A DNA stretch of 64,000 bases from an uncultured Acidobacteriaceae bacterium (GTDB taxonomy: Bacteria; Acidobacteriota; Terriglobia; Terriglobales; Acidobacteriaceae): NCBI GenBank assembly GCA_963729555.1, contig CAVSOH010000010.1:1860-65859 (forward strand), written 5' to 3'. Shown here piece after piece: positions 5,768 through 22,111 of this stretch. The notes under the pieces are model-generated. The model was given only the letters and a program-made list of their open reading frames with translations. It was not told the origin of the DNA and did not search any database. The position numbers and the translations under genes were made by a program. Each line of letters starts with the position of its first letter. Position 1 is the first letter of the stretch.

Positions 5768-5782
5768 CAGAGACTTGGAACG

Positions 5783-7054
5783 CTAGTTCTTCAGCAGCTC
5801 CTCGAGGTTGGGGTTGAGGTCTTTTTTTGTTGTCTTCGCGGGAGTGAGTTCGACGTTCAGTCCGGTTACGTCGCTGTCGGTCACGATGACGGACTGCTTG
5901 CCATCTTGGTAGCTGCGCAGCGTGTTAGTCGACTCAACAGTTATGAAAGCTGTCGGTTTTTTCGTCGAGGGCTCGGTGTCGGCTGCATTGGTGACGAGTA
6001 GGTCATAGGTGCCGGGGGGAACGAATGTCACCGTGAAGTTGCCGTGGGCATCGACTCCGGTCCCTCGTGAAAAGTCCTTATCAAGCTTGTCTTCGAGCAC
6101 CACTAGCCCTGTGTTGAGACCGTGATGGTCCTCGGCTGAAGCGATACGGCCGCTGACGGAGTGCAGGCCTCCGAGTTTGATGGTCACCTCTTCGTCGCCG
6201 CGGTCTTCCGCGGTACGCAGGGTCACGGGCTTCGCGCCGGCCTGATGAAATGCGGCGGGGGCGAAGACGATGAGCGGGGAATCCATCATTTTGCTCATGT
6301 TCATGACGCCGTTCGTCATCGCGAACTGCATGTGGGTCTGCAATATTGCCTTGATGAGATAGTCCCCGGGGACCAACCCCGAGATGCGAAAGTGGCCCAG
6401 GTCGTCGGTGATCGACATCGTACCGCTGCCGCTGCCATTGAGGTTCATTGACAGCATTGCGAACTCTGGCGGAATAGCAGTCTCTTTGGTCTTCGCAGAG
6501 ATAACCGTAACTGTGACTTGCGTAGCCGGGCTACCGTCGTCCCATACGACCTTGCCGGAGATCGCAGCTCCGCGATTGACGAGGAGATCGGCCCGGATCG
6601 AGCGGTCGGCGATGACATGCACCATCGGAGTGTCGGGGATCGACTTGCGGGGATCGGCACCGGCATCGATGGCCGCCCGCACGATATTTCCCGACTGCAC
6701 GTATCCCGGGACGGAGGCGAAGACGTAATAATCTCCCGGAGTCACATTGGTTGCTTCAAAGCTGCCGTCGATGTCGGTCTGGGTCTGCACCATGTTGCCC
6801 TCTGTGTACGACTTCAGCGCGGCCCTGATCTGGGCGGCATCGGGTTTGGCGTTGGGATCGGCGTTCGCCGGCGGTGTGATCTCTGCGGGCACGCCTAGGA
6901 GCATCACGTGAGCGAACCTTGCGGGACGCTGCGTGTCGCTGCATGTGACGTGGCCAGTGACGGTGCCACCGGGCGATGCAGGCGCGGGCTGTTGCGCCAG
7001 AGAGGGGCAGGCGAGCAGAACGAGAATCAGGGCGCGAATCCTGAAGGGTCGCAT
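5783..7054 (-). CDS. Secreted protein with carboxypeptidase regulatory-like (Ig/transthyretin-like) repeats
   Basis: MRPFRIRALILVLLACPSLAQQ signal peptide; repeated GTVTGHV / GAAISGKV / HSVSGRI ... TDxxGxF ... PGDY units. Confidence 0.8.
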   Translation of the reverse strand: MRPFRIRALILVLLACPSLAQQPAPASPGGTVTGHVTCSDTQRPARFAHVMLLGVPAEITPPANADPNAKPDAAQIRAALKSYTEGNMVQTQTDIDGSFEATNVTPGDYYVFASVPGYVQSGNIVRAAIDAGADPRKSIPDTPMVHVIADRSIRADLLVNRGAAISGKVVWDDGSPATQVTVTVISAKTKETAIPPEFAMLSMNLNGSGSGTMSITDDLGHFRISGLVPGDYLIKAILQTHMQFAMTNGVMNMSKMMDSPLIVFAPAAFHQAGAKPVTLRTAEDRGDEEVTIKLGGLHSVSGRIASAEDHHGLNTGLVVLEDKLDKDFSRGTGVDAHGNFTVTFVPPGTYDLLVTNAADTEPSTKKPTAFITVESTNTLRSYQDGKQSVIVTDSDVTGLNVELTPAKTTKKDLNPNLEELLKN

Positions 7055-7140
7055 CGGCCAAGTATCGGATTGGATTTTTGGAGGAGCAAGAGAAAAATTG
7101 CCACTAGCGAAAGGCTTCGCGTTCCCGAAGCGAGGAATGG

Positions 7141-8133
7141 TTATGGGACGATGACTACGGCTCCGTCTGCGGTCTCCTGCTTTACGGCGTGGACGGCTTC
7201 GTTGGCCTGCGCGAGGGGGAAGGTTTTGATGCGAGGTTTGAGGCCGATCTCTCCGGCGAGCTTGAGGAAGTCGCGGGCGTCGGCGCGGGTCATGTTGGCT
7301 ACGCTGCGGATCTGGCGCTCGCCCCAGAGAAGCTTGTCGTAGTCGAAGGCGGGCATCTGGTCGAGGTGGATGGCGTTGATGGCTACGACTCCCCCTTTGC
7401 GCAGGCTGGAGAGCGCGCTGACGACGACGGCTCCGCTGGGAGCGAAGGTGATGGCGCGGTCGAGTTCGACGGGAGGGCTCTGCTGGTCGGTGCCGACCCA
7501 GGTTGCGCCGAGTGCGGTGGCTGCGGCGCGGTGAGCTTCGCCGCGAGTAGAGACGTAGACCTCGCAACCCCAGTGACGGAGGACTTCGATCGTGAGACTG
7601 GCGGAGGAGCCGAAGCCGAAGAGGCCGACGCGTTCGCGGGGTTTGACTCCGGCTACGCGGAGGCTGCGGAATCCGATGATACCGGCGCAGAGCAGGGGGG
7701 CGACATGGGCGTCGTCGAGCGTGGTAGGGAGGGGGAAGGTGAATCCGGCGCGGACGAGGACGTATTCAGCGTAGCCTCCATCGACGGTGTAGCCGGTAAA
7801 GATGGGGTTGTCGCAGAGGTTCTCTTCGCCACGGAGGCAGTACGGGCAGATGCCGTCGGTTCCGCCGACCCAGGAGACGCCGACGCGCGCGCCTGCTGGA
7901 AGTGCCGGTGAGCCGCCTTCGACGACCTCGCCGACGATCTGGTGGCCGGGGATGAGATGGGGCCGGATGGGCGGGAGGTCGCCCTCGATGATGTGCAGAT
8001 CGGTACGGCAGACTCCGCAGGCCAGTACGCGGAGGAGGACGTATCCGGGGATGAGCTTGGGCCGGGGGACGTCCTCGACGGTGAGAACGGGTGGGGCTGT
8101 GCGGCGGAAAGAGTTGAAGACAGCGACCTTCAC
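7141..8133 (-). CDS. Zinc-binding alcohol dehydrogenase (MDR family, AdhP-like)
   Basis: CGVCRTDLH, GHQIVG, structural Zn segment GICPYCLRGEENLC, APLLCAGIIG; GTG start at 8133 preceded by GAGGAG. Confidence 0.9.
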   Translation of the reverse strand: MKVAVFNSFRRTAPPVLTVEDVPRPKLIPGYVLLRVLACGVCRTDLHIIEGDLPPIRPHLIPGHQIVGEVVEGGSPALPAGARVGVSWVGGTDGICPYCLRGEENLCDNPIFTGYTVDGGYAEYVLVRAGFTFPLPTTLDDAHVAPLLCAGIIGFRSLRVAGVKPRERVGLFGFGSSASLTIEVLRHWGCEVYVSTRGEAHRAAATALGATWVGTDQQSPPVELDRAITFAPSGAVVVSALSSLRKGGVVAINAIHLDQMPAFDYDKLLWGERQIRSVANMTRADARDFLKLAGEIGLKPRIKTFPLAQANEAVHAVKQETADGAVVIVP

Positions 8134-8227
8134 GGGTCTCCTCGACAGATGTGAGCGTTGCCAACAGTTGCTGGTTGCTTCGATGCACAAGCGATGGTGG
8201 ACGTACCGGGCTCTCTGAAAAAGTAGT

Positions 8228-13763: not shown

Positions 13764-14207
13764 CTATACGGCAGGCGGGCTGAGGAGCTGATCTGCCGCT
13801 GTGGCCGCTCCGCAATGAGGGCAGAAAGTTGCAGCGGGCTCGATGGCAGCACCGCATGCACGGCAGGGCGGAGTTGTGGTGGACGGTGCGGCCTGCATCG
13901 GGGTGTTGAGGATCTGGGTGGCGATATAGGTGGCCTGCTCGGCGTTGTAGCGACGGACTCGGCCTGGCATAAAGAAGGCGTCGATAAAGCCGAGGATGGC
14001 GGAGATGCCTGTCCAGAAGAAGCAAAGATAGAGGATGCCGAGGCCAGTGCGCCGGATATAAAACTGGTGGATGCCAAAGTTGCCGAGAAAGATAGCGAGA
14101 AGGACGCCGATGACCTCGTCGCGGCGAGCGTGCGCGAACTCGGCGTAGAACCAGGCGCGTTGATGGTCGGTCATGTTGGCGGTGGGGATAGGGTCGATGA
14201 ACTGCAT
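13764..14207 (-). CDS. TM2 (NINE) domain protein with C-terminal zinc ribbon
   Basis: LLAIFLGNFGIHQFY...GILYLCFFWTGISAILGFID; CRAC...FCPHCG. Confidence 0.85.
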   Translation of the reverse strand: MQFIDPIPTANMTDHQRAWFYAEFAHARRDEVIGVLLAIFLGNFGIHQFYIRRTGLGILYLCFFWTGISAILGFIDAFFMPGRVRRYNAEQATYIATQILNTPMQAAPSTTTPPCRACGAAIEPAATFCPHCGAATAADQLLSPPAV

Positions 14208-14236
14208 GGCGTTGGAATCTCCGATCTTGCAGAAGA

Positions 14237-14262
14237 TACGTGCTCTTAGGGGGCAAGGTTCC
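14237..14262 (-). promoter_or_regulatory. Candidate ECF sigma promoter of the TM2 gene
   Basis: GGAACC-N16-CGTA on the minus strand, about 30 nt before the ATG. Confidence 0.45.
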
Positions 14263-14405
14263 CGATGGTTCAGATGGCAATCTAAGACGGGACTGGTCGC
14301 ACTTTACAGGTAATGGAAGTCGCCGTAAAGTTTTGTTAATTCGCGGCGTCGAGGCAACGGCGTATCGCGATCGTCACTCTGAGTAAAGAAACGAGGAGGT
14401 CGTCT

Positions 14406-14615
14406 ATGCAATCGGTACACACTGGGCAGTGTGGGCTCTGTACGCATTTTGGGGAGAACCATGCGAAGAACTCTGCGCTGGTGACGATCCTCACAAGCCA
14501 TAAAGCGCCGTTGAATATGCTGGATGAGTGCGGCCATCCGAAACACGCTGCGTTGCACCTGAAGGTGACGCCGATCAGTGGATGCGATGGCTTCCATGCT
14601 GCGGCTCAGGCCTAA
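14406..14615 (+). CDS. Small four-cysteine protein (HiPIP-like Cys layout)
   Basis: Strong SD GAGGAGG; C9xxC12...C42...C60xxF. Confidence 0.8.
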   Translation: MQSVHTGQCGLCTHFGENHAKNSALVTILTSHKAPLNMLDECGHPKHAALHLKVTPISGCDGFHAAAQA

Positions 14616-14640
14616 GACATATCTAATTGTTGGTTAAACT

Positions 14641-14670
14641 CAAAAGCCCCCGCTGAAGCGAGGGCCTTTG
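14641..14670. terminator. Bidirectional terminator between the small Cys protein gene and rpoD
   Basis: CAAAAGCCCCCGC-TGAA-GCGAGGGCCTTTG, imperfect stem flanked by A/T runs. Confidence 0.6.
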
Positions 14671-14688
14671 ATTTTAAAGCAGCGCAGG

Positions 14689-16401
<1,713 letters not shown>

Positions 16402-16610
16402 GGCTGTGCGCACTCCTGCGAAAGATCCTTTTTGATTGGGTGCCGCCGGTTAGATTCCGGGCGGACAAATCCCTGGGTTGTTTCGTAATGGGCAGGGAGC
16501 AGATAGCGGTTTAGACCGCTTTGGCCAGCCGTATGACCTTCAGAGAGGTCAGGGCATTCAAGGGCACACTTCCCCAGCGAATCACAGCATACCACAGACT
16601 ATTAGACGCT

Positions 16611-16856
16611 TTACGTGGAAAAAAGGTTCGGTGGCGGTGTCCGCAAAGGTTCTCCCTTGACGCCGCTCTGGTGCCGGGGACAGCGGCGCAGGTGAATATC
16701 TTTGCCCGCGGAACCATAATCGTGGCTGCAATGGCTGCAGCGCATGTGGTAAATCGTCTGTCCGGGGAAGGATTCCGAGGGAAAACCGGTCCTGGCGATG
16801 ACGATTTGGCCGTGTTTGTTCTTATATCCGGGGTCTGTGGTCTGAAAACGAGTCAT
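16611..16856 (-). CDS. Small zinc-finger hypothetical protein, third gene of the TA operon
   Basis: ATG overlaps the doc stop (ATGA); CSHC...CPRH. Confidence 0.7.
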   Translation of the reverse strand: MTRFQTTDPGYKNKHGQIVIARTGFPSESFPGQTIYHMRCSHCSHDYGSAGKDIHLRRCPRHQSGVKGEPLRTPPPNLFST

Positions 16857-17248
16857 TTTTCCAAGGGAACAGCGTGCTGGGTGAACCAGGCGGCTAACCC
16901 CTCTTCGCTCAGGGAGCCGTCGGCCAAGTGCAGAAAGGTAAAGTACTTCTCTTCAGGCGTCGAAACAACCCTCAGGCCATTCAGGCGCAGAAAGCCTTCG
17001 GAGATGACCAGAGCCGTGCGCTTATTTCCATCGATGAAGGCGTGGTTTCGCGCCAGCCCGAAGGCGTAGGAGGCCGCAAGTCGCGGAAGGGTCGGATCAT
17101 CGGCATATGCGAAGACATTGCGCGGCTTGGACAGCGCCGAGTCGAGAAGAGCCTCATCGCGAAGGCCATCCGATCCGCCGTGCTCCGCCAGCTGCCTTGA
17201 ATGAACGACTAGAACCTCTGGCTTATCAATCCAGATCGGCTCGTCCAC
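16853..17248 (-). CDS. doc: Death-on-curing (Doc/Fic family) type II toxin
   Basis: HGGSDGLRDEALLDSAL...HAFIDGNKRTA. Confidence 0.93.
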   Translation of the reverse strand: MDEPIWIDKPEVLVVHSRQLAEHGGSDGLRDEALLDSALSKPRNVFAYADDPTLPRLAASYAFGLARNHAFIDGNKRTALVISEGFLRLNGLRVVSTPEEKYFTFLHLADGSLSEEGLAAWFTQHAVPLEK

Positions 17249-17475
17249 TATTCCGCCAGTTTCTTCAGAACATCGCGATTTTCCCGCATCACGTGTTCGA
17301 ACGCGTCGAGCTTATCTGCGAACGAAGCAGTATACGGGGTCAGGCGAACCCCATCCGGCGCTTCCGTGAAGTAGACCGTATCGCCCTTTTCGACATGAAG
17401 CCGGTTCAGGATCTCTTTCGGCAAAATGACCCCTACCGAATTCCCAATGGAGATGATTTTGGCTGCGGTTGCCAT
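17248..17475 (-). CDS. AbrB/MazE/SpoVT family antitoxin
   Basis: KIISIGNSVGVILPKEIL...VEKGDTVYF; stop overlaps the doc start. Confidence 0.9.
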   Translation of the reverse strand: MATAAKIISIGNSVGVILPKEILNRLHVEKGDTVYFTEAPDGVRLTPYTASFADKLDAFEHVMRENRDVLKKLAE

Positions 17476-17493
17476 AGGAGCCTCCTCAGGTAA

Positions 17494-17511
17494 TTATAAC
17501 AATTGTTATAA
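17494..17511. promoter_or_regulatory. Palindromic operator of the TA operon
   Basis: Perfect 18-bp palindrome TTATAACAATTGTTATAA, 18 nt upstream of the antitoxin ATG. Confidence 0.75.
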
Positions 17512-17525
17512 CGCTAAGAAGAGTC

Positions 17526-19031
17526 TCAGGCAAACTTCCGAAACAGCTGTCCCGACATCTTCTTCACCACATCCCCAACCCCAAACAGCGGCCATGAGAG
17601 CCCCGCGACAATCGCTCCCGCCGTCACGGCGAGTCCCATCTGCCAAAGCAAGGGATACGTCGAAGTCCGCTGCAGCAGCCCCAGCGAGACCATCAGCAAG
17701 ACCAGGCAGAGCGTCAACAGTCGCCGCAGGTAGGTAAACTCCAGCGGATCATGCGCGAATAATTCCATATTGAGGCGAAGAATCCGCACGGTCTGGAACG
17801 TCTCCACTGCCAGCCATGTCCAGAGAAAACCAGCAACTCCTGCGAAGTGGACCGTACCTATCGACAGCACAACCATGGTCACGTAGCTGAAAAACATCGT
17901 TCGGGCGAGCGACTCGTGCGTGTTGGTCGAATACTGGAACTGAAACTTGTGCTCTTTCAGGCTAATGACCATCGAGATAGCGGCACTCAGAACGTACGGG
18001 TACGGAGAGAAAAGCTCTGCGCGCCTGTGCATCCAGACGGTGATCAGAATGGGCGACAGCAGTAGAACGCCCGTGTTGACCAGCGGGATCAGGAAGAAGA
18101 CGAACCGCTCCGAGTAGTCATAAAGCCGCGAAAGCGCCGTCCAATCGTCCCGGCCGAACAGGTGCGTGATCTCCGCCCCCATCGACTGCGTAAAGATCGA
18201 CAGCATCTGCCGGCACATGGAGAAGACCAGCCGCATGACGATGAAGCCTGCAACGGCTACCGGCCCAAGTACACGCTGCAGCACGATCAACGGCGCCTGG
18301 TAGGTCAAAAAAGTGGAGACCGCGATCAGGCCGAAGTAGCCGCTGGGCCTGAGGATCTCCTTGACTGCACTTCGATCCCAATATCGGATGTTGGGGAATA
18401 GATCTGGAGCTGTGCGGCGCAGGTCGAAGAGGACGCACACAATCGAAAGGCACATCGTAAACAGCATCACGCCGGCCAGCACAGGGAAGGGCATCCGCAT
18501 CGACACGCACAGCAGCAGCAGCAGAGCAGAAAGAAATGCCTGAAAGTTGCTCCAGTAAGCTCCGCGGTGGGCCCGCGCGACCCCCATGTAGATTCCAGTG
18601 AAATACCCAAAGAGAATATTCAGCAGCACCTGGCAGGCCAGAAGGTATGCGGTGAGTTGCGTCGCGCGCCTTCCGATATCGAGCTTCAGCATCGAGTCGA
18701 TGGGCAGCGCGAAGATGACGAGCGAAAGCGCCATTGCACAAAGAACCACGCTACCCAGCAGGCGAAGCGCAGTCGACTGCCGCACCTGGTAGCCGCCGGC
18801 CTCGCCTCGGTTGTAGCGCACGGCGAGGTCCTGGTTCATGTATGTCTGCACGCCGAAGTTCAGCATCCCCAGCGCAGCCACCGCGCCCGACAGGACGCCC
18901 CACTCGCCGAACTGCGCCGTCGAGTAGCGATGAATGAAGATCGGCGGAATGATGACCTGCTGGATGATCGTCAGCAAGCGGCCCGTAAACATGGCGCCCA
19001 GGTTTTTGAGGATGCGTTGGAATCCGGCCAT
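17526..19031 (-). CDS. Polysaccharide/oligosaccharide flippase-like membrane protein (Wzx/MOP superfamily)
   Basis: 501 aa, about 12-14 hydrophobic segments; FGEWGVLSGAVA..., LGPVAVAGF. Confidence 0.7.
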   Translation of the reverse strand: MAGFQRILKNLGAMFTGRLLTIIQQVIIPPIFIHRYSTAQFGEWGVLSGAVAALGMLNFGVQTYMNQDLAVRYNRGEAGGYQVRQSTALRLLGSVVLCAMALSLVIFALPIDSMLKLDIGRRATQLTAYLLACQVLLNILFGYFTGIYMGVARAHRGAYWSNFQAFLSALLLLLCVSMRMPFPVLAGVMLFTMCLSIVCVLFDLRRTAPDLFPNIRYWDRSAVKEILRPSGYFGLIAVSTFLTYQAPLIVLQRVLGPVAVAGFIVMRLVFSMCRQMLSIFTQSMGAEITHLFGRDDWTALSRLYDYSERFVFFLIPLVNTGVLLLSPILITVWMHRRAELFSPYPYVLSAAISMVISLKEHKFQFQYSTNTHESLARTMFFSYVTMVVLSIGTVHFAGVAGFLWTWLAVETFQTVRILRLNMELFAHDPLEFTYLRRLLTLCLVLLMVSLGLLQRTSTYPLLWQMGLAVTAGAIVAGLSWPLFGVGDVVKKMSGQLFRKFA

Positions 19032-19129
19032 GTTCGGTTCAGCGATCTCCAGGGGTCTTAAGGCAAGAGGCCAGATAGCATTTGCAGGGCCATTCTATCC
19101 TGACCATCCCCGGAGCCGAATACCACCAA

Positions 19130-20917
19130 TCAGTGATTGCGTAGCCAGCCGTCGACCTCTACCTTCTCTGCCGAAAGCTTCTTCAGCATCTCCTCATCAC
19201 CACGCCTGTAGGCCTCGGCGATCAGCGTGCGGATCTCGCGCTGCCGCCGCTGCATGTAGCGAAGTTCGAGTTTGTCGAGGGCATGCTGTACCCGCTCGGT
19301 TAACGGTTGTTGCGAGTCGGCCGCGTCGTCGCCGTGTTGCAGTGCCAGAGCCAGCAGAGCCCGGCTGGGTTGGTCGGGAGCGGCGTCCAGAGGATTGGAA
19401 GGAGCCGGTGCGTGGGCCAGCGCCTCCAGAACTGACGCGGCGGTCAAGCCGTCGTACCACTCCGGATGTTCGGAGAGCCTCGCCGCTGCAAGTCTCCGTG
19501 ACGAGTCATCCTCGGGCAGCACCAGCGCACGCAGCAGGATGCGCTCCATCTCGCTGGCCGGATCGTTCGTATGGGTGCGCACGCTCTCCACGCGCTGTGC
19601 AGCGGCCTGCTTCAACTCCTGCCGCAGGATGGCCGAGTCGATCCCCAGCTTCTGCGCGGCGTCGGCGGCGAACTCGTCGCGTTGGATGCGGTTAGGCATG
19701 CGGCGAATGTGCGGCAGCAGAAAGTTCATCGCCTTTACCTTGCCCTCGGCCGTGCGTGGGGGGAACTGCTGACGGGCGCGCTCGATCAGAAAGTCGCTGT
19801 ACCGCTTGGCCGTGCGCAGCGCAGCCATATAGGCCTGGATTCCATGCTCGCGAACGTAGCGGTCGGGATCGAGCCCGCCTTCGAGCGTAATCACCTTCAC
19901 CTCGAAGTCCTCTTCGGTCAGCAGAGCGATGGCCTTCTCGGCAGCGCCTGCACCGGCGTTGTCAGGATCGAAGTTGACCACGACGCGTTTGGTGAACCGG
20001 CTGATCTGGCGCACCTGCATCTCGGTGAACGCCGTGCCGGAGACTGCAAGGACGTTCCTGATCCCGGCCATATACACCGAGATGCAGTCCATCTGCCCTT
20101 CCACGAGAAGAACAAAATCATGAGCGCGCATATCGGCCTTGGCCTTGTCCAGATTGAACAGAACCTGCCCCTTCGAATACAGCGCAGTCTCCGGCGAGTT
20201 CATGTACTTGGCAATCGCCCGCCCCTTGTCGTCGACCTCATCCAATGCCCGCGCAGTAAACGCAATCGTCTTGCCCTGTTCGTTCGCAATGGGAAAGGTG
20301 ATGCGCTTGCGAAACTTCGCATAGAGCTGTCCCTGCGACCCGTCGGCCTGCTCCTTCGCGCTGAAGAGTCCACTCGTGCGCATCACCTCTTCGTTGAAGT
20401 GAGGCTTCAAACGCTCGCGCATATCGTTGAAGTCATCCGGTGCATAACCAATGCGAAATTTAGCGATCGTCTCCGCGGTAACGCCGCGACCGGTCAGGTA
20501 CTCTCGCGCACGCGCCGCCTCGGGACTCTTCAGATGAGCCTCAAAGTACTGCGTCGCCGCCTCATGGATGTCGATCAACTGCCGCCGCAGCCCAGCCTCG
20601 CGCGCCTCTTCCGGTGAACTGAACTCGCGCTTCGGCAGCGGAACCCCTGCCTTCGCTGCAACGGCGCGAACAGCTTCGGGAAAGCTGATGCTCTCCATCT
20701 TCATCACGAACGTGAAGACGTCGCCCTTCTCGTGACAGCCAAAACAGTAGAAGTAACTGTGCGTCGCGTTCACCGAGAAGGAGCCCGTCTTCTCCTTGTG
20801 AAAAGGGCACAGGCCGGTGTAGTTCTGCGCGCCAGTCTTGCGCAGCTTCACATACTCGCCGATGATGCGGACGATGTCGGCCTGCTGCTTGACGGTTTGG
20901 GCAAAGTTATCCGACAT
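19130..20917 (-). CDS. dnaG: DNA primase
   Basis: CPFHKEKTGSFSV...YCFGC zinc finger, KYMNSPET, TOPRIM VEGQMD, FDPDNAG, DPD; start MSDNFAQTVK at 20917. Confidence 0.97.
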   Translation of the reverse strand: MSDNFAQTVKQQADIVRIIGEYVKLRKTGAQNYTGLCPFHKEKTGSFSVNATHSYFYCFGCHEKGDVFTFVMKMESISFPEAVRAVAAKAGVPLPKREFSSPEEAREAGLRRQLIDIHEAATQYFEAHLKSPEAARAREYLTGRGVTAETIAKFRIGYAPDDFNDMRERLKPHFNEEVMRTSGLFSAKEQADGSQGQLYAKFRKRITFPIANEQGKTIAFTARALDEVDDKGRAIAKYMNSPETALYSKGQVLFNLDKAKADMRAHDFVLLVEGQMDCISVYMAGIRNVLAVSGTAFTEMQVRQISRFTKRVVVNFDPDNAGAGAAEKAIALLTEEDFEVKVITLEGGLDPDRYVREHGIQAYMAALRTAKRYSDFLIERARQQFPPRTAEGKVKAMNFLLPHIRRMPNRIQRDEFAADAAQKLGIDSAILRQELKQAAAQRVESVRTHTNDPASEMERILLRALVLPEDDSSRRLAAARLSEHPEWYDGLTAASVLEALAHAPAPSNPLDAAPDQPSRALLALALQHGDDAADSQQPLTERVQHALDKLELRYMQRRQREIRTLIAEAYRRGDEEMLKKLSAEKVEVDGWLRNH

Positions 20918-21190
20918 ACATACGATCTGAATGCTGAATATTGAGCAAAGGATCTTTTCATGAGTGTAGATGAGCCCGTTCCGCGGACGACTTACCATGA
21001 CGAAACGGCGTTGTCCACTGCAACCTTTGTTGTATCGTCTCGTCAAAACACAGATCAATAAAATAGGGAAACTTCCACGGTGATCGTGTGTTTCAACGTG
21101 GGGTAGGCTGAATGATGGCTTGTTCAGTAGGTTCCAAATTTTGAGGCAGCGCTTCCTTTAAGCGTGTTGCCGTATCCCAGGGGTAGATGT

Positions 21191-22111
21191 ATGAAAGTCA
21201 CGAATTTTGTCCGTAAGTCACTCGTAGCAGCGGCTTTGATGCTCGTTCCGGCAGCATCTTTTGCAGGAGTTCTTATCTCCGTCAACATTGCACCGCCCGC
21301 GTTGCCTGTTTACACACAGCCGCTCTGCCCCGGCGATGGATACATGTGGACACCTGGCTATTGGGCCTATGGACCGGAAGGTTACTACTGGGTTCCCGGC
21401 GTATGGGTCCAGCCTCCTACCGTTGGCATGCTCTGGACGCCCGGTTACTGGGGCTGGACCAACGGAGCGTACCTCTTCCACGCTGGCTACTGGGGCCCGC
21501 ACATCGGCTTCTACGGCGGCGTGAACTACGGCTTCGGCTACGGCGGCGTCGGCTTTGAGGGCGGCTACTGGAACCACGGAGTCTTCGCCTACAACCGCGC
21601 GGTGACCAACGTCAACATCGTCAACGTCCACAACGTCTACTCCAGGACCGTTGTGGTGAATAACACCTACAGCCGCGTCAGCTTCAACGGCGGCAACGGC
21701 GGCATCCGTGCAATGCCAACAGCACAGGAACGCATTGCCGTGAATGAGCAGCACTTCCAGCCCACGGTGAACCAGGTCAGCCATGAGCAGGCGATGCGGG
21801 CTGATCGCGGACAGCTCGCCTCGGTCAACGGTGGCCGGCCGAACACCATGGCCATGGGAACCGTGAATGAGCGTCGCGCGAATCAGCAGCAGCGTATCGC
21901 TAACGGCATCGGCAGTGGACAGATGACCGCCGGTGAGGCCGCGCGTTCGGAGAACCGTCAGGCGCAAATCAACCAGCAGGTGCACGCCGATCGCGCAGCC
22001 AATGGCGGCCAGCTGACCCAGCAGGAACACCAGCAGGTCAACCACGAGCAGAACAAGGCCAGCAAGCAGATCTACAACGAGAAACACAACGACGAAAAGG
22101 CTCCCCGCTAG
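21191..22111 (+). CDS. YXWGXW repeat-containing secreted protein
   Basis: Signal peptide; WTPGYWAY, WVPGVWV, WTPGYWGW, HAGYWG repeats; Q/R/N-rich tail. Confidence 0.88.
   Translation: MKVTNFVRKSLVAAALMLVPAASFAGVLISVNIAPPALPVYTQPLCPGDGYMWTPGYWAYGPEGYYWVPGVWVQPPTVGMLWTPGYWGWTNGAYLFHAGYWGPHIGFYGGVNYGFGYGGVGFEGGYWNHGVFAYNRAVTNVNIVNVHNVYSRTVVVNNTYSRVSFNGGNGGIRAMPTAQERIAVNEQHFQPTVNQVSHEQAMRADRGQLASVNGGRPNTMAMGTVNERRANQQQRIANGIGSGQMTAGEAARSENRQAQINQQVHADRAANGGQLTQQEHQQVNHEQNKASKQIYNEKHNDEKAPR

Follow-up and report, generated by a model that had tools for sequence, protein, structure and literature searches.

Evidence for Two Abutting Units, an AbrB-Doc Cassette and a Resident Zinc-Finger Gene, at the dnaG-rpoD Site of Acidobacteriaceae

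The window analyzed here is a 64,000-nucleotide (nt) stretch of contig CAVSOH010000010.1 from an uncultured Acidobacteriaceae bacterium, and it contains, between dnaG and rpoD, three small co-oriented genes for an AbrB-type antitoxin, a Doc toxin, and an 81-amino-acid (aa) zinc-finger protein. A first-pass annotation had read these genes as a three-gene operon and had proposed that the third gene may modulate the toxin-antitoxin pair or sense its trigger, which would be an undescribed tripartite arrangement. Here, we propose that the interval probably consists of two independent units that abut one another, a toxin-antitoxin cassette and a resident zinc-finger gene. The zinc-finger gene follows RpoD rather than Doc in its divergence and stays at the site when the pair is absent, and the tripartite arrangement was therefore not borne out.

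Results

A Variable Cassette and a Constant Gene Upstream of rpoD

Scanning one genome per bacterial species with the 81-aa protein yielded 79 loci, all of whose open reading frames (ORFs) were translated and then searched with the six proteins of the window. The close form of the zinc-finger gene was present in 36 species-level loci, all from Acidobacteriaceae (Edaphobacter, Granulicella, Tunturiibacter, and relatives); the nearest to the window, an Edaphobacter metagenome-assembled genome (L008), shared 98% identity with it in the zinc finger and 99% in RpoD. The gene lay ~200 bp upstream of rpoD in every one of the 36 loci that reached far enough downstream. In 18 of the 36 species, the AbrB-Doc pair immediately preceded the zinc-finger gene and shared its strand; it was inverted and divergently transcribed in two (L010 and L012) and absent from 15, among them L040, in which the order was dnaG, zinc finger, rpoD with nothing between. 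One further species (L036:5625-5924), like two metagenome loci (L002:4751-4963 and L003:172-384), carried directly upstream of the zinc-finger gene only a weak AbrB/MazE-like ORF of 70 aa without Doc, possibly an orphan antitoxin left by toxin loss.

In the pair-less loci, alignment with the window started at position 16860 and ran downstream over the zinc-finger gene and the spacer and on into rpoD, with nucleotide identity of 77-85%. This edge of homology lies 4 nt before the zinc-finger ATG, and positions 16861-17590 of the window had no counterpart in the pair-less loci; therefore, the cassette is a discrete insertion or deletion that ends at the zinc-finger start codon.

Cassette-bearing and cassette-less species were interspersed on the RpoD tree. 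Pairwise identities of the zinc finger were correlated with those of RpoD (Spearman rho 0.67, p 7e-67), and those of Doc with those of AbrB (rho 0.79, p 2e-42), whereas Doc showed no such relation to the zinc finger (rho 0.09, p 0.20); against RpoD, rho was 0.09 for Doc and 0.08 for AbrB. Near-identical hosts carried different cassettes: with RpoD 98% identical to that of the window, Doc was 71% identical in L011 but only 35-39% in L010 and L012, the two Edaphobacter species with the inverted cassette (L010:5153-6045 and L012:5338-5999). A fragment of a same-strand AbrB gene is retained in L010, which suggests cassette replacement. The zinc-finger gene was under similar constraint in both backgrounds: the ratio of nonsynonymous to synonymous substitution rates (dN/dS) was 0.096 when species with the cassette were paired and 0.142 when species without it were.

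Among the 18 same-strand loci, the doc/zinc-finger junction was an ATGA overlap in six, a 41-nt overlap in one, a spacer of 12-52 nt in ten, and undetermined in one. A TAnAAT-like element occurred 11-20 nt upstream of the zinc-finger ATG in many loci, with or without the pair, which suggests that the gene may have a promoter of its own there. Across these loci, AbrB-Doc thus behaves like a cassette that is complete in itself and can be exchanged, and the zinc-finger gene like a chromosomal resident. By the gene-neighborhood check that the first-pass annotation had proposed, the tripartite reading failed: the close form was always with rpoD, and Doc/AbrB neighbors appeared only at this syntenic site. 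At loci with more distant zinc-finger homologues (L043-L047 and L049-L105), no Fic/Doc motif was present. In the next-closest clade (L043-L047), the zinc-finger gene lay 0.7-2.3 kb from rpoD or not near it, and in the searched loci of the wider family none was near rpoD.

The Cassette Carries the Classical Parts of a Toxin-Antitoxin Pair

Profile matches support the identification of the first two genes as an AbrB-fold antitoxin and Doc toxin pair, and the families named at first pass were upheld at curated cut-offs. The antitoxin matched TIGR02609 ("doc_partner"; 74.3 bits, cut-off 55.9, E 7e-21) and PF04014 (MazE_antitoxin; 36.2 bits, cut-off 24.7, E 5.7e-9). Doc matched PF02661 (Fic; 60.9 bits, cut-off 24, E 2e-16), TIGR01550 (DOC_P1; 56.6 bits, cut-off 38.65, E 2.6e-15), and phrog_577 ("Doc-like toxin"; E 4e-26), and it aligned with the P1 Doc structure 3K33 over the active-site motif (E 5e-12). 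The HAFIDGNKR sequence, intact as annotated, satisfies the Doc-type motif H-x-F-x-(D/E)-(A/G)-N-K-R; a pattern search found the full motif in 17 of the 20 species loci that bear a cassette and in metagenome copies, the exceptions being L018, missed by the pattern, and L010 and L012, which have it on the other strand. The antitoxin gene lies directly upstream of doc in the same operon, and the annotated overlap was found as TAGTG, in which the TAG stop and the GTG start (17248) have one base in common.

A perfect 18-bp palindrome, TTATAACAATTGTTATAA, lies 19 nt upstream of the antitoxin ATG and is presumed to be the operator of the AbrB-type antitoxin. The repeat finder missed this AT-rich sequence, which a pattern search then established; no second copy occurs in the window, and the number expected from shuffles is 0. 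Twelve cassette-bearing loci have the motif TTATAAC-N4-GTTATAA shortly before the AbrB gene, and no cassette-less locus has it; in L010 and L012 it accompanies the inverted cassette, and there the operator palindrome TTATAACTTATGTTATAA sits right before the zinc-finger ATG. Because a consensus promoter scan called no full -35/-10 on the minus strand, a TATAAT hexamer overlapping the palindrome can be regarded only as a putative promoter element; the promoter and terminator scan returned nothing useful on this strand. As far as its sequence tells, the cassette is complete on its own, with operator, antitoxin, and toxin.

The Third Gene Encodes a Conserved Zinc-Finger Protein

The 81-aa ORF carries the CSHC (C40-S-H-C43) and CPRH (C59-P-R-H62) knuckles noted at first pass. 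Its protein was conserved at 63-98% identity across genera, with 37 close homologues in metagenomes, and the gene showed strong purifying selection (median dN/dS 0.11 at a dS of about 1.3). All four metal-ligand positions were conserved: C40, C43, and C59 were invariant or nearly so, following a two-knuckle pattern CxxC ... CPx[CH], and position 62 alternated between H and C, as a fourth zinc ligand would be expected to do. In an AlphaFold2 model (AF2; predicted local distance difference test 85.6), the protein has three strands, a short helix, and two zinc knuckles, and it is predicted to be a small zinc-binding protein. Searches of Pfam, NCBIfam, PHROG, and PADLOC gave nothing above threshold. 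That the ORF is a chance reading frame has virtually no probability: it has no database family and no Shine-Dalgarno sequence of its own, but its identity across genera and its dN/dS, together with the breadth of the family described below, its invariant residues including the Cys ligands, and the confident AF2 model, refute this explanation.

The family is sizeable. A profile search recovered 2239 family clusters at 90% identity, and an exhaustive hidden Markov model search recovered 991 representatives (50% identity), of which 685 had E values below 1e-10. Among the matches listed, most were stand-alone proteins of ~70 aa, and those with a source name were mostly annotated "hypothetical". 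An alignment of 71 sequences showed 15 invariant residues (T7, Q17, Q33, Y36, C40, C43, Y47, G48, G51, D53, R57, C59, P60, G65, and G68). The rpoD-linked clade of Acidobacteriaceae has its own C-terminal tail, GEPLRxPPPNLF, which is absent from the wider family.

Neither the model nor the sequence of the 81-aa protein had a significant PDB match by Foldseek or by sequence profile search, and matches to cereblon/Yippee, CarD/CdnL, and VapX proteins (E above 0.4) were not used. Below threshold, the CapR homology domain PF21817 matched the zinc finger with E 0.018 and 15.7 bits (gathering score 24.2), and the DUF4379 treble clef matched the family with E 0.002-0.1 and 13-19 bits (gathering score 24.5). 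The top viral fold matches (TM scores of about 0.45-0.57, E 0.03-0.3, and probabilities as high as 1.0) belonged to CapR-homology, treble-clef, homing-endonuclease, and HNH proteins. The likeness to CapR and DUF4379 is weak, falling below curated cut-offs or at E above 0.03, and these sub-threshold matches are weak but convergent hints toward homing-endonuclease-type DNA-binding zinc fingers. The domain is most likely a small nucleic-acid-binding module, probably a DNA-binding one; this is the weakest step of our interpretation, and we hold it with considerably lower confidence than the two-unit structure.

Coupling to the Cassette and to rpoD

In the window, the doc TGA stop overlaps the ATG of the 81-aa ORF as ATGA (16853-16856), in agreement with the first reading of the sequence. 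One contig of a soil metatranscriptome, derived from a close relative (94% identity), crosses the doc/zinc-finger junction (16758-16929), a second covers antitoxin and doc (17013-17461), and others cover 16399-16565; positions 16608-16709 were uncovered. These RNA data are a few contigs from relatives that do not define transcription starts and may include DNA contamination. No promoter-like element was recognized in the doc 3' end. Because the cassette ends on the zinc-finger start codon, with no such element before it and a contig across the junction, the cassette promoter probably, on thin evidence, drives the zinc-finger gene in the sub-lineage of the window, and translation of this gene is probably coupled there to that of doc. 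In our reading, an inserted cassette has taken over the expression of a resident gene. Of the three-gene operon, the physical coupling (ATGA and RNA contig) thus stands, and the membership of the third gene in the toxin-antitoxin system does not, with 15 of the 36 species pair-less and two bearing an inverted pair.

Downstream, an alignment of 17 loci showed a near-invariant promoter-like TGTGGTATnCT (TGTGGTATGCT, 16586-16596) 14 nt past the zinc-finger stop, followed by a highly conserved rpoD leader of ~165 nt, and rpoD seems to have a transcription start of its own after the zinc-finger gene. The spacer between the two genes was almost invariant across Acidobacteriaceae genera, and hairpin-like elements in the leader were conserved (GACCT...AGGTC at about 16535-16550 and GCGGT-N4-ACCGC at about 16506-16519). 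In an alifold analysis of the leader, sequence conservation was high and covariation limited, too little for a structure claim, and the leader had no match in Rfam.

The Wider Family Is Often Joined to Nucleases and Restriction Systems

Long members, of at least 140 aa (88/264 representatives/profile hits), usually carry the zinc-finger domain at the C-terminus. DUF429 was the commonest fusion partner (11 of the 85 long members scanned); the others were Swt1-like HEPN (HEPN_Swt1), HNH, AspBHI_N plus HNH, HARE-HTH plus a methyl-directed restriction endonuclease, and DUF4145 and other DUFs, and tandem copies of the domain also occurred. On a single 1.1-kb contig, a Phd/YefM antitoxin is fused to the zinc-finger domain and followed by a PIN toxin. 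In seven loci (table 1), the domain is fused to Swt1-like HEPN, to a ~270-aa domain ending in EGWILGV, or to an HNH nuclease; in two of these proteins the ~270-aa domain had no Pfam match. From such architectures, the domain appears to behave as a mobile module joined to nucleases.

Genomic context was looked up for seven distant stand-alone members. Three occupied the hsdS-hsdM gap of type I restriction-modification operons (hsdR-hsdS-X-hsdM), with overlapping codons. Of the others, one was flanked by GmrSD and a NERD nuclease, with an MmeI-like methylase alongside, one lay near a resolvase, YgjP, and an HsdR fragment, one next to UvrD/PD-(D/E)xK and RadC, and one amid unannotated small genes and insertion sequence elements. 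In type I operons, the distant zinc-finger gene is followed by a gene for a conserved ~200-aa protein (L091:4209-4802 and L102:3697-4302, also L081:6110-6787) with an R-x4-H motif (RCGILH) reminiscent of HEPN; two such proteins, p197 and p201, had no Pfam match. Together, the two genes form an insert that recurs between hsdS and hsdM and brings PrrC-type modules to mind. Directly downstream of one zinc-finger-containing type I operon (L094/L095/L096, about 5768-8222) is a gene for a TIR-NB-ARC-WD40 protein of more than 1130 aa, an arrangement that looks like a typical defense island.

The neighbors of the zinc finger in 38 species-level loci were heterogeneous and included some integrases and resolvases and one AIPR protein. 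Clustering of ORFs revealed no single conserved neighbor of the distant copies, and HsdM, HsdS, and p197 queries matched only four of the species-level loci. Since a Pfam scan of 132 neighbors was likewise heterogeneous, the association with defense is frequent, not universal. The family had two matches in a plasmid collection and none in a phage collection; therefore, the zinc finger is not a typical mobile-element gene.

RAZR (PD-T7-4) is a defense protein that combines a zinc-finger domain with a DUF4145 HEPN RNase (PMC13017515). The present family likewise has HEPN_Swt1 and DUF4145 fusions, but the domain order differs, the zinc finger being mostly C-terminal here. RAZR was rejected as a relative of the zinc finger: it gave no PADLOC match and no PDB sequence match at E<=10, and it was outside the top 50 Foldseek PDB matches.

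Locus Layout

All genes of the interval are on the minus strand (table 1). The upstream neighbor, a multi-pass membrane protein, matched the NCBIfam profile WZX_like with only 24 bits (cut-off 300), below the cut-off, and its gene was found in most, not all, related loci. The dnaG/rpoD interval of these Acidobacteriaceae holds further variable polysaccharide-related genes, namely genes for a Wzx-like flippase, a family-2 glycosyltransferase (GT2; L011, L022, and L025), and a GH79-like secreted protein (L027, L035, L036, L041, and L002), which is unusual for an otherwise compact neighborhood. Because its other variable cargo (GT2, Wzx-like, and GH79) is polysaccharide-related, the interval is no defense island, and its designation as a defense islet was rejected. 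An Rfam scan of 14000-21500 gave no credible match.

Table 1. Features of the dnaG-rpoD interval in the window, and loci with zinc-finger fusions
Feature	Position	Strand	Basis
dnaG (primase), context neighbor	19130-21058	-	ORF; Zn_ribbon_DnaG, Toprim, and DnaB_bind domains on orthologues
Wzx-like multi-pass membrane protein, upstream neighbor, varies between species	17526-19031	-	Weak NCBIfam WZX_like match
Presumed operator, perfect 18-bp palindrome (arms TTATAAC and GTTATAA around AATT)	17494-17511	no strand	Direct reading and pattern search
TATAAT hexamer, -10-like, overlaps right arm of palindrome	17493-17498	-	Sequence reading only
GGAGG Shine-Dalgarno, after TATAAT hexamer	17481-17485	-	Sequence reading
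Antitoxin, 75 aa, AbrB/MazE swapped-hairpin fold, "doc_partner" family	17248-17475	-	TIGR02609, PF04014
Doc toxin, 131 aa, Fic fold, GTG start, HAFIDGNKR	16853-17248	-	PF02661, TIGR01550, phrog_577, 3K33
Resident zinc-finger gene, 81 aa, ligands C40, C43, C59, H62	16611-16856	-	Conservation, dN/dS, synteny
Spacer between zinc-finger gene and rpoD, with promoter-like TGTGGTATGCT and conserved rpoD leader	16414-16610	-	Alignment of 17 loci
rpoD (primary sigma factor), 574 aa, downstream neighbor, context	14689-16413	-	ORF; Sigma70 r1.1 to r4 Pfam domains on orthologues
Zinc-finger fusion loci	L050:5470-6198, L057:3359-4228, L065:5482-6210; L051:3513-4640, L052:5146-6219, L067:70-1059; L070:5992-7011		

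Discussion

We proposed that two units with separate histories meet at this site. The first (about 17520-16857) would be a self-contained type II toxin-antitoxin cassette with its own promoter region and operator. By homology to P1 Phd/Doc and to AbrB-fold antitoxins, the antitoxin would act as a dimer whose N-terminal swapped-hairpin domain contacts the palindrome, thereby repressing the operon. The C-terminal part of the antitoxin would neutralize Doc, and free Doc would phosphorylate EF-Tu and arrest translation. The second unit (16611-16856) would be a vertically inherited gene residing just upstream of the rpoD promoter, cassette or not. At this one site, the cassette has been lost, inverted, and swapped between lineages, and the zinc-finger gene is probably a passenger, not a partner, of the cassette operon in this lineage, with a cassette-independent role in Acidobacteriaceae.

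Several observations weigh against this proposal. The site has borne a Doc-type cassette in 20 of the 36 species, as divergent alleles (35-94% identity) and in both orientations, and no other toxin-antitoxin family was seen there in the 36 species loci, so the recurrence could hint at a functional preference as opposed to common descent plus recombination. In the window, the three genes form a single physical unit of transcription and translation, with the ATGA overlap, no recognizable promoter in the doc 3' end, and an RNA contig across the junction; therefore, a regulatory consequence for the zinc-finger gene is likely. In addition, the family is enriched near toxic effectors, with the Phd fusion before a PIN toxin on one short contig, and DNA binding by the zinc finger draws on sub-threshold matches, with no significant match in the PDB. 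A true tripartite system, in which the zinc finger acts as a modulator, trigger sensor, or extra regulator of AbrB-Doc, would accommodate the coupling, the cassette beside the gene in more than half of the species, and the fusion of relatives to toxic effectors and restriction systems or their adjacency to them. Nevertheless, we consider it very improbable: the gene persists under similar constraint where the cassette is missing and beside inverted copies, Doc diverges with AbrB and not with the zinc finger, the ATGA overlap is found in only six of the 18 same-strand loci, no Doc motif accompanies the distant homologues, and the cassette is already complete with operator, antitoxin, and toxin.

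Other explanations concern the zinc-finger gene itself. It may belong to the dnaG-rpoD "macromolecular synthesis" neighborhood, regulating rpoD expression or acting with sigma factor, RNA polymerase, or primase, and the cassette would then be irrelevant to it. Its invariant position before rpoD in the 36 species, the dnaG-zinc finger-rpoD order of L040, its co-divergence with RpoD, the promoter-like element and leader that start 14 nt past its stop, and the clade-specific tail all favor such a role, which is compatible with the two-unit explanation; but synteny by itself is no proof of function, the gene is displaced from rpoD in L043-L047 and never near it in the wider family, and the fold matches to the RNA-polymerase-binding CarD and CdnL are insignificant. 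We regard this role as unlikely. It is improbable, in our judgment, that a conflict system left the gene behind, orphaned or domesticated; on that view, it once supplied DNA binding or sensing to a nuclease or restriction module, is now fixed at the site, and perhaps still serves defense or regulates mobile cassettes landing alongside. Fusions to DUF429, HEPN_Swt1, HNH, and methyl-directed restriction enzymes, copies within type I operons, and integrase, resolvase, or AIPR genes beside several distant copies speak for such an origin, whereas the polysaccharide-related cargo between dnaG and the zinc finger, the scarcity of the family on plasmids and its absence from the phage collection do not, and purifying selection with strict vertical inheritance across genera fits a housekeeping gene better. 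It is quite improbable that the domain is an adaptor that moves between toxic effectors (DUF429, HEPN, HNH, and methyl-directed nucleases, type I restriction-modification operons, and a Phd-PIN module) and lends them DNA binding or sensing, and that the copy fixed between dnaG and rpoD in Acidobacteriaceae interacts functionally with the Doc cassettes repeatedly retained next to it; this copy might, for example, gate Doc release, or link cassette-promoter activity to rpoD-proximal regulation where expression was captured. The tie of the family to conflict systems is not empty, but the evidence gives no tie to Doc. Two independent abutting units remain the explanation that we favor.

Phd/Doc of P1 is a type II toxin-antitoxin system whose toxin is a Fic-fold kinase of EF-Tu. 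The window resembles it in its clear Doc homologue (3K33, TIGR01550, and the H-x-F-x-D-G-N-K-R motif) and in an upstream antitoxin gene with overlapping stop and start; it differs in that the antitoxin is of AbrB/MazE fold, not Phd/YefM, and that the pair is chromosomal, between dnaG and rpoD. A composite MazE/AbrB-Doc module, TasA-TasB of Bacillus thuringiensis pGI1, is described in PMC1626090. Like that module and the TIGR02609 "doc_partner" family, whose cut-off it passes, the window has a two-gene AbrB/MazE-fold antitoxin plus Doc; unlike TasA-TasB, it comes from another phylum, has another operator, and abuts an unrelated resident gene. The combination is thus an already described composite type, of which the window adds another example.

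Three-gene toxin-antitoxin systems include TAC with its SecB-like chaperone, PaaR-PaaA-ParE, and omega-epsilon-zeta, whose third gene encodes a dedicated chaperone or regulator and moves together with the toxin-antitoxin pair. The window shares with them three small co-oriented genes with overlapping or near-overlapping codons; unlike theirs, its third gene persists without the pair or with an inverted one and shows no co-evolution with it, and Pfam and NCBIfam scans found no helix-turn-helix, ribbon-helix-helix, or SecB similarity in it. Since the third gene does not travel with the pair, the locus is an ordinary toxin-antitoxin cassette beside an uncharacterized gene. Some novelty may lie only in the zinc-finger family and its nuclease and restriction-modification contexts, from which its function is predicted.

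No long-standing question is made directly testable by these findings. What the site offers is a clean natural experiment: one position between the essential genes dnaG and rpoD has seen the loss, inversion, and exchange of a toxin-antitoxin cassette, which in one sub-lineage has probably captured the expression of a conserved resident gene. That resident gene, in turn, reveals a sizeable and uncharacterized zinc-finger family whose contexts point to nucleases and restriction-modification; if the ligand of the zinc finger were determined, it could explain the small gene that recurs within type I restriction-modification operons.

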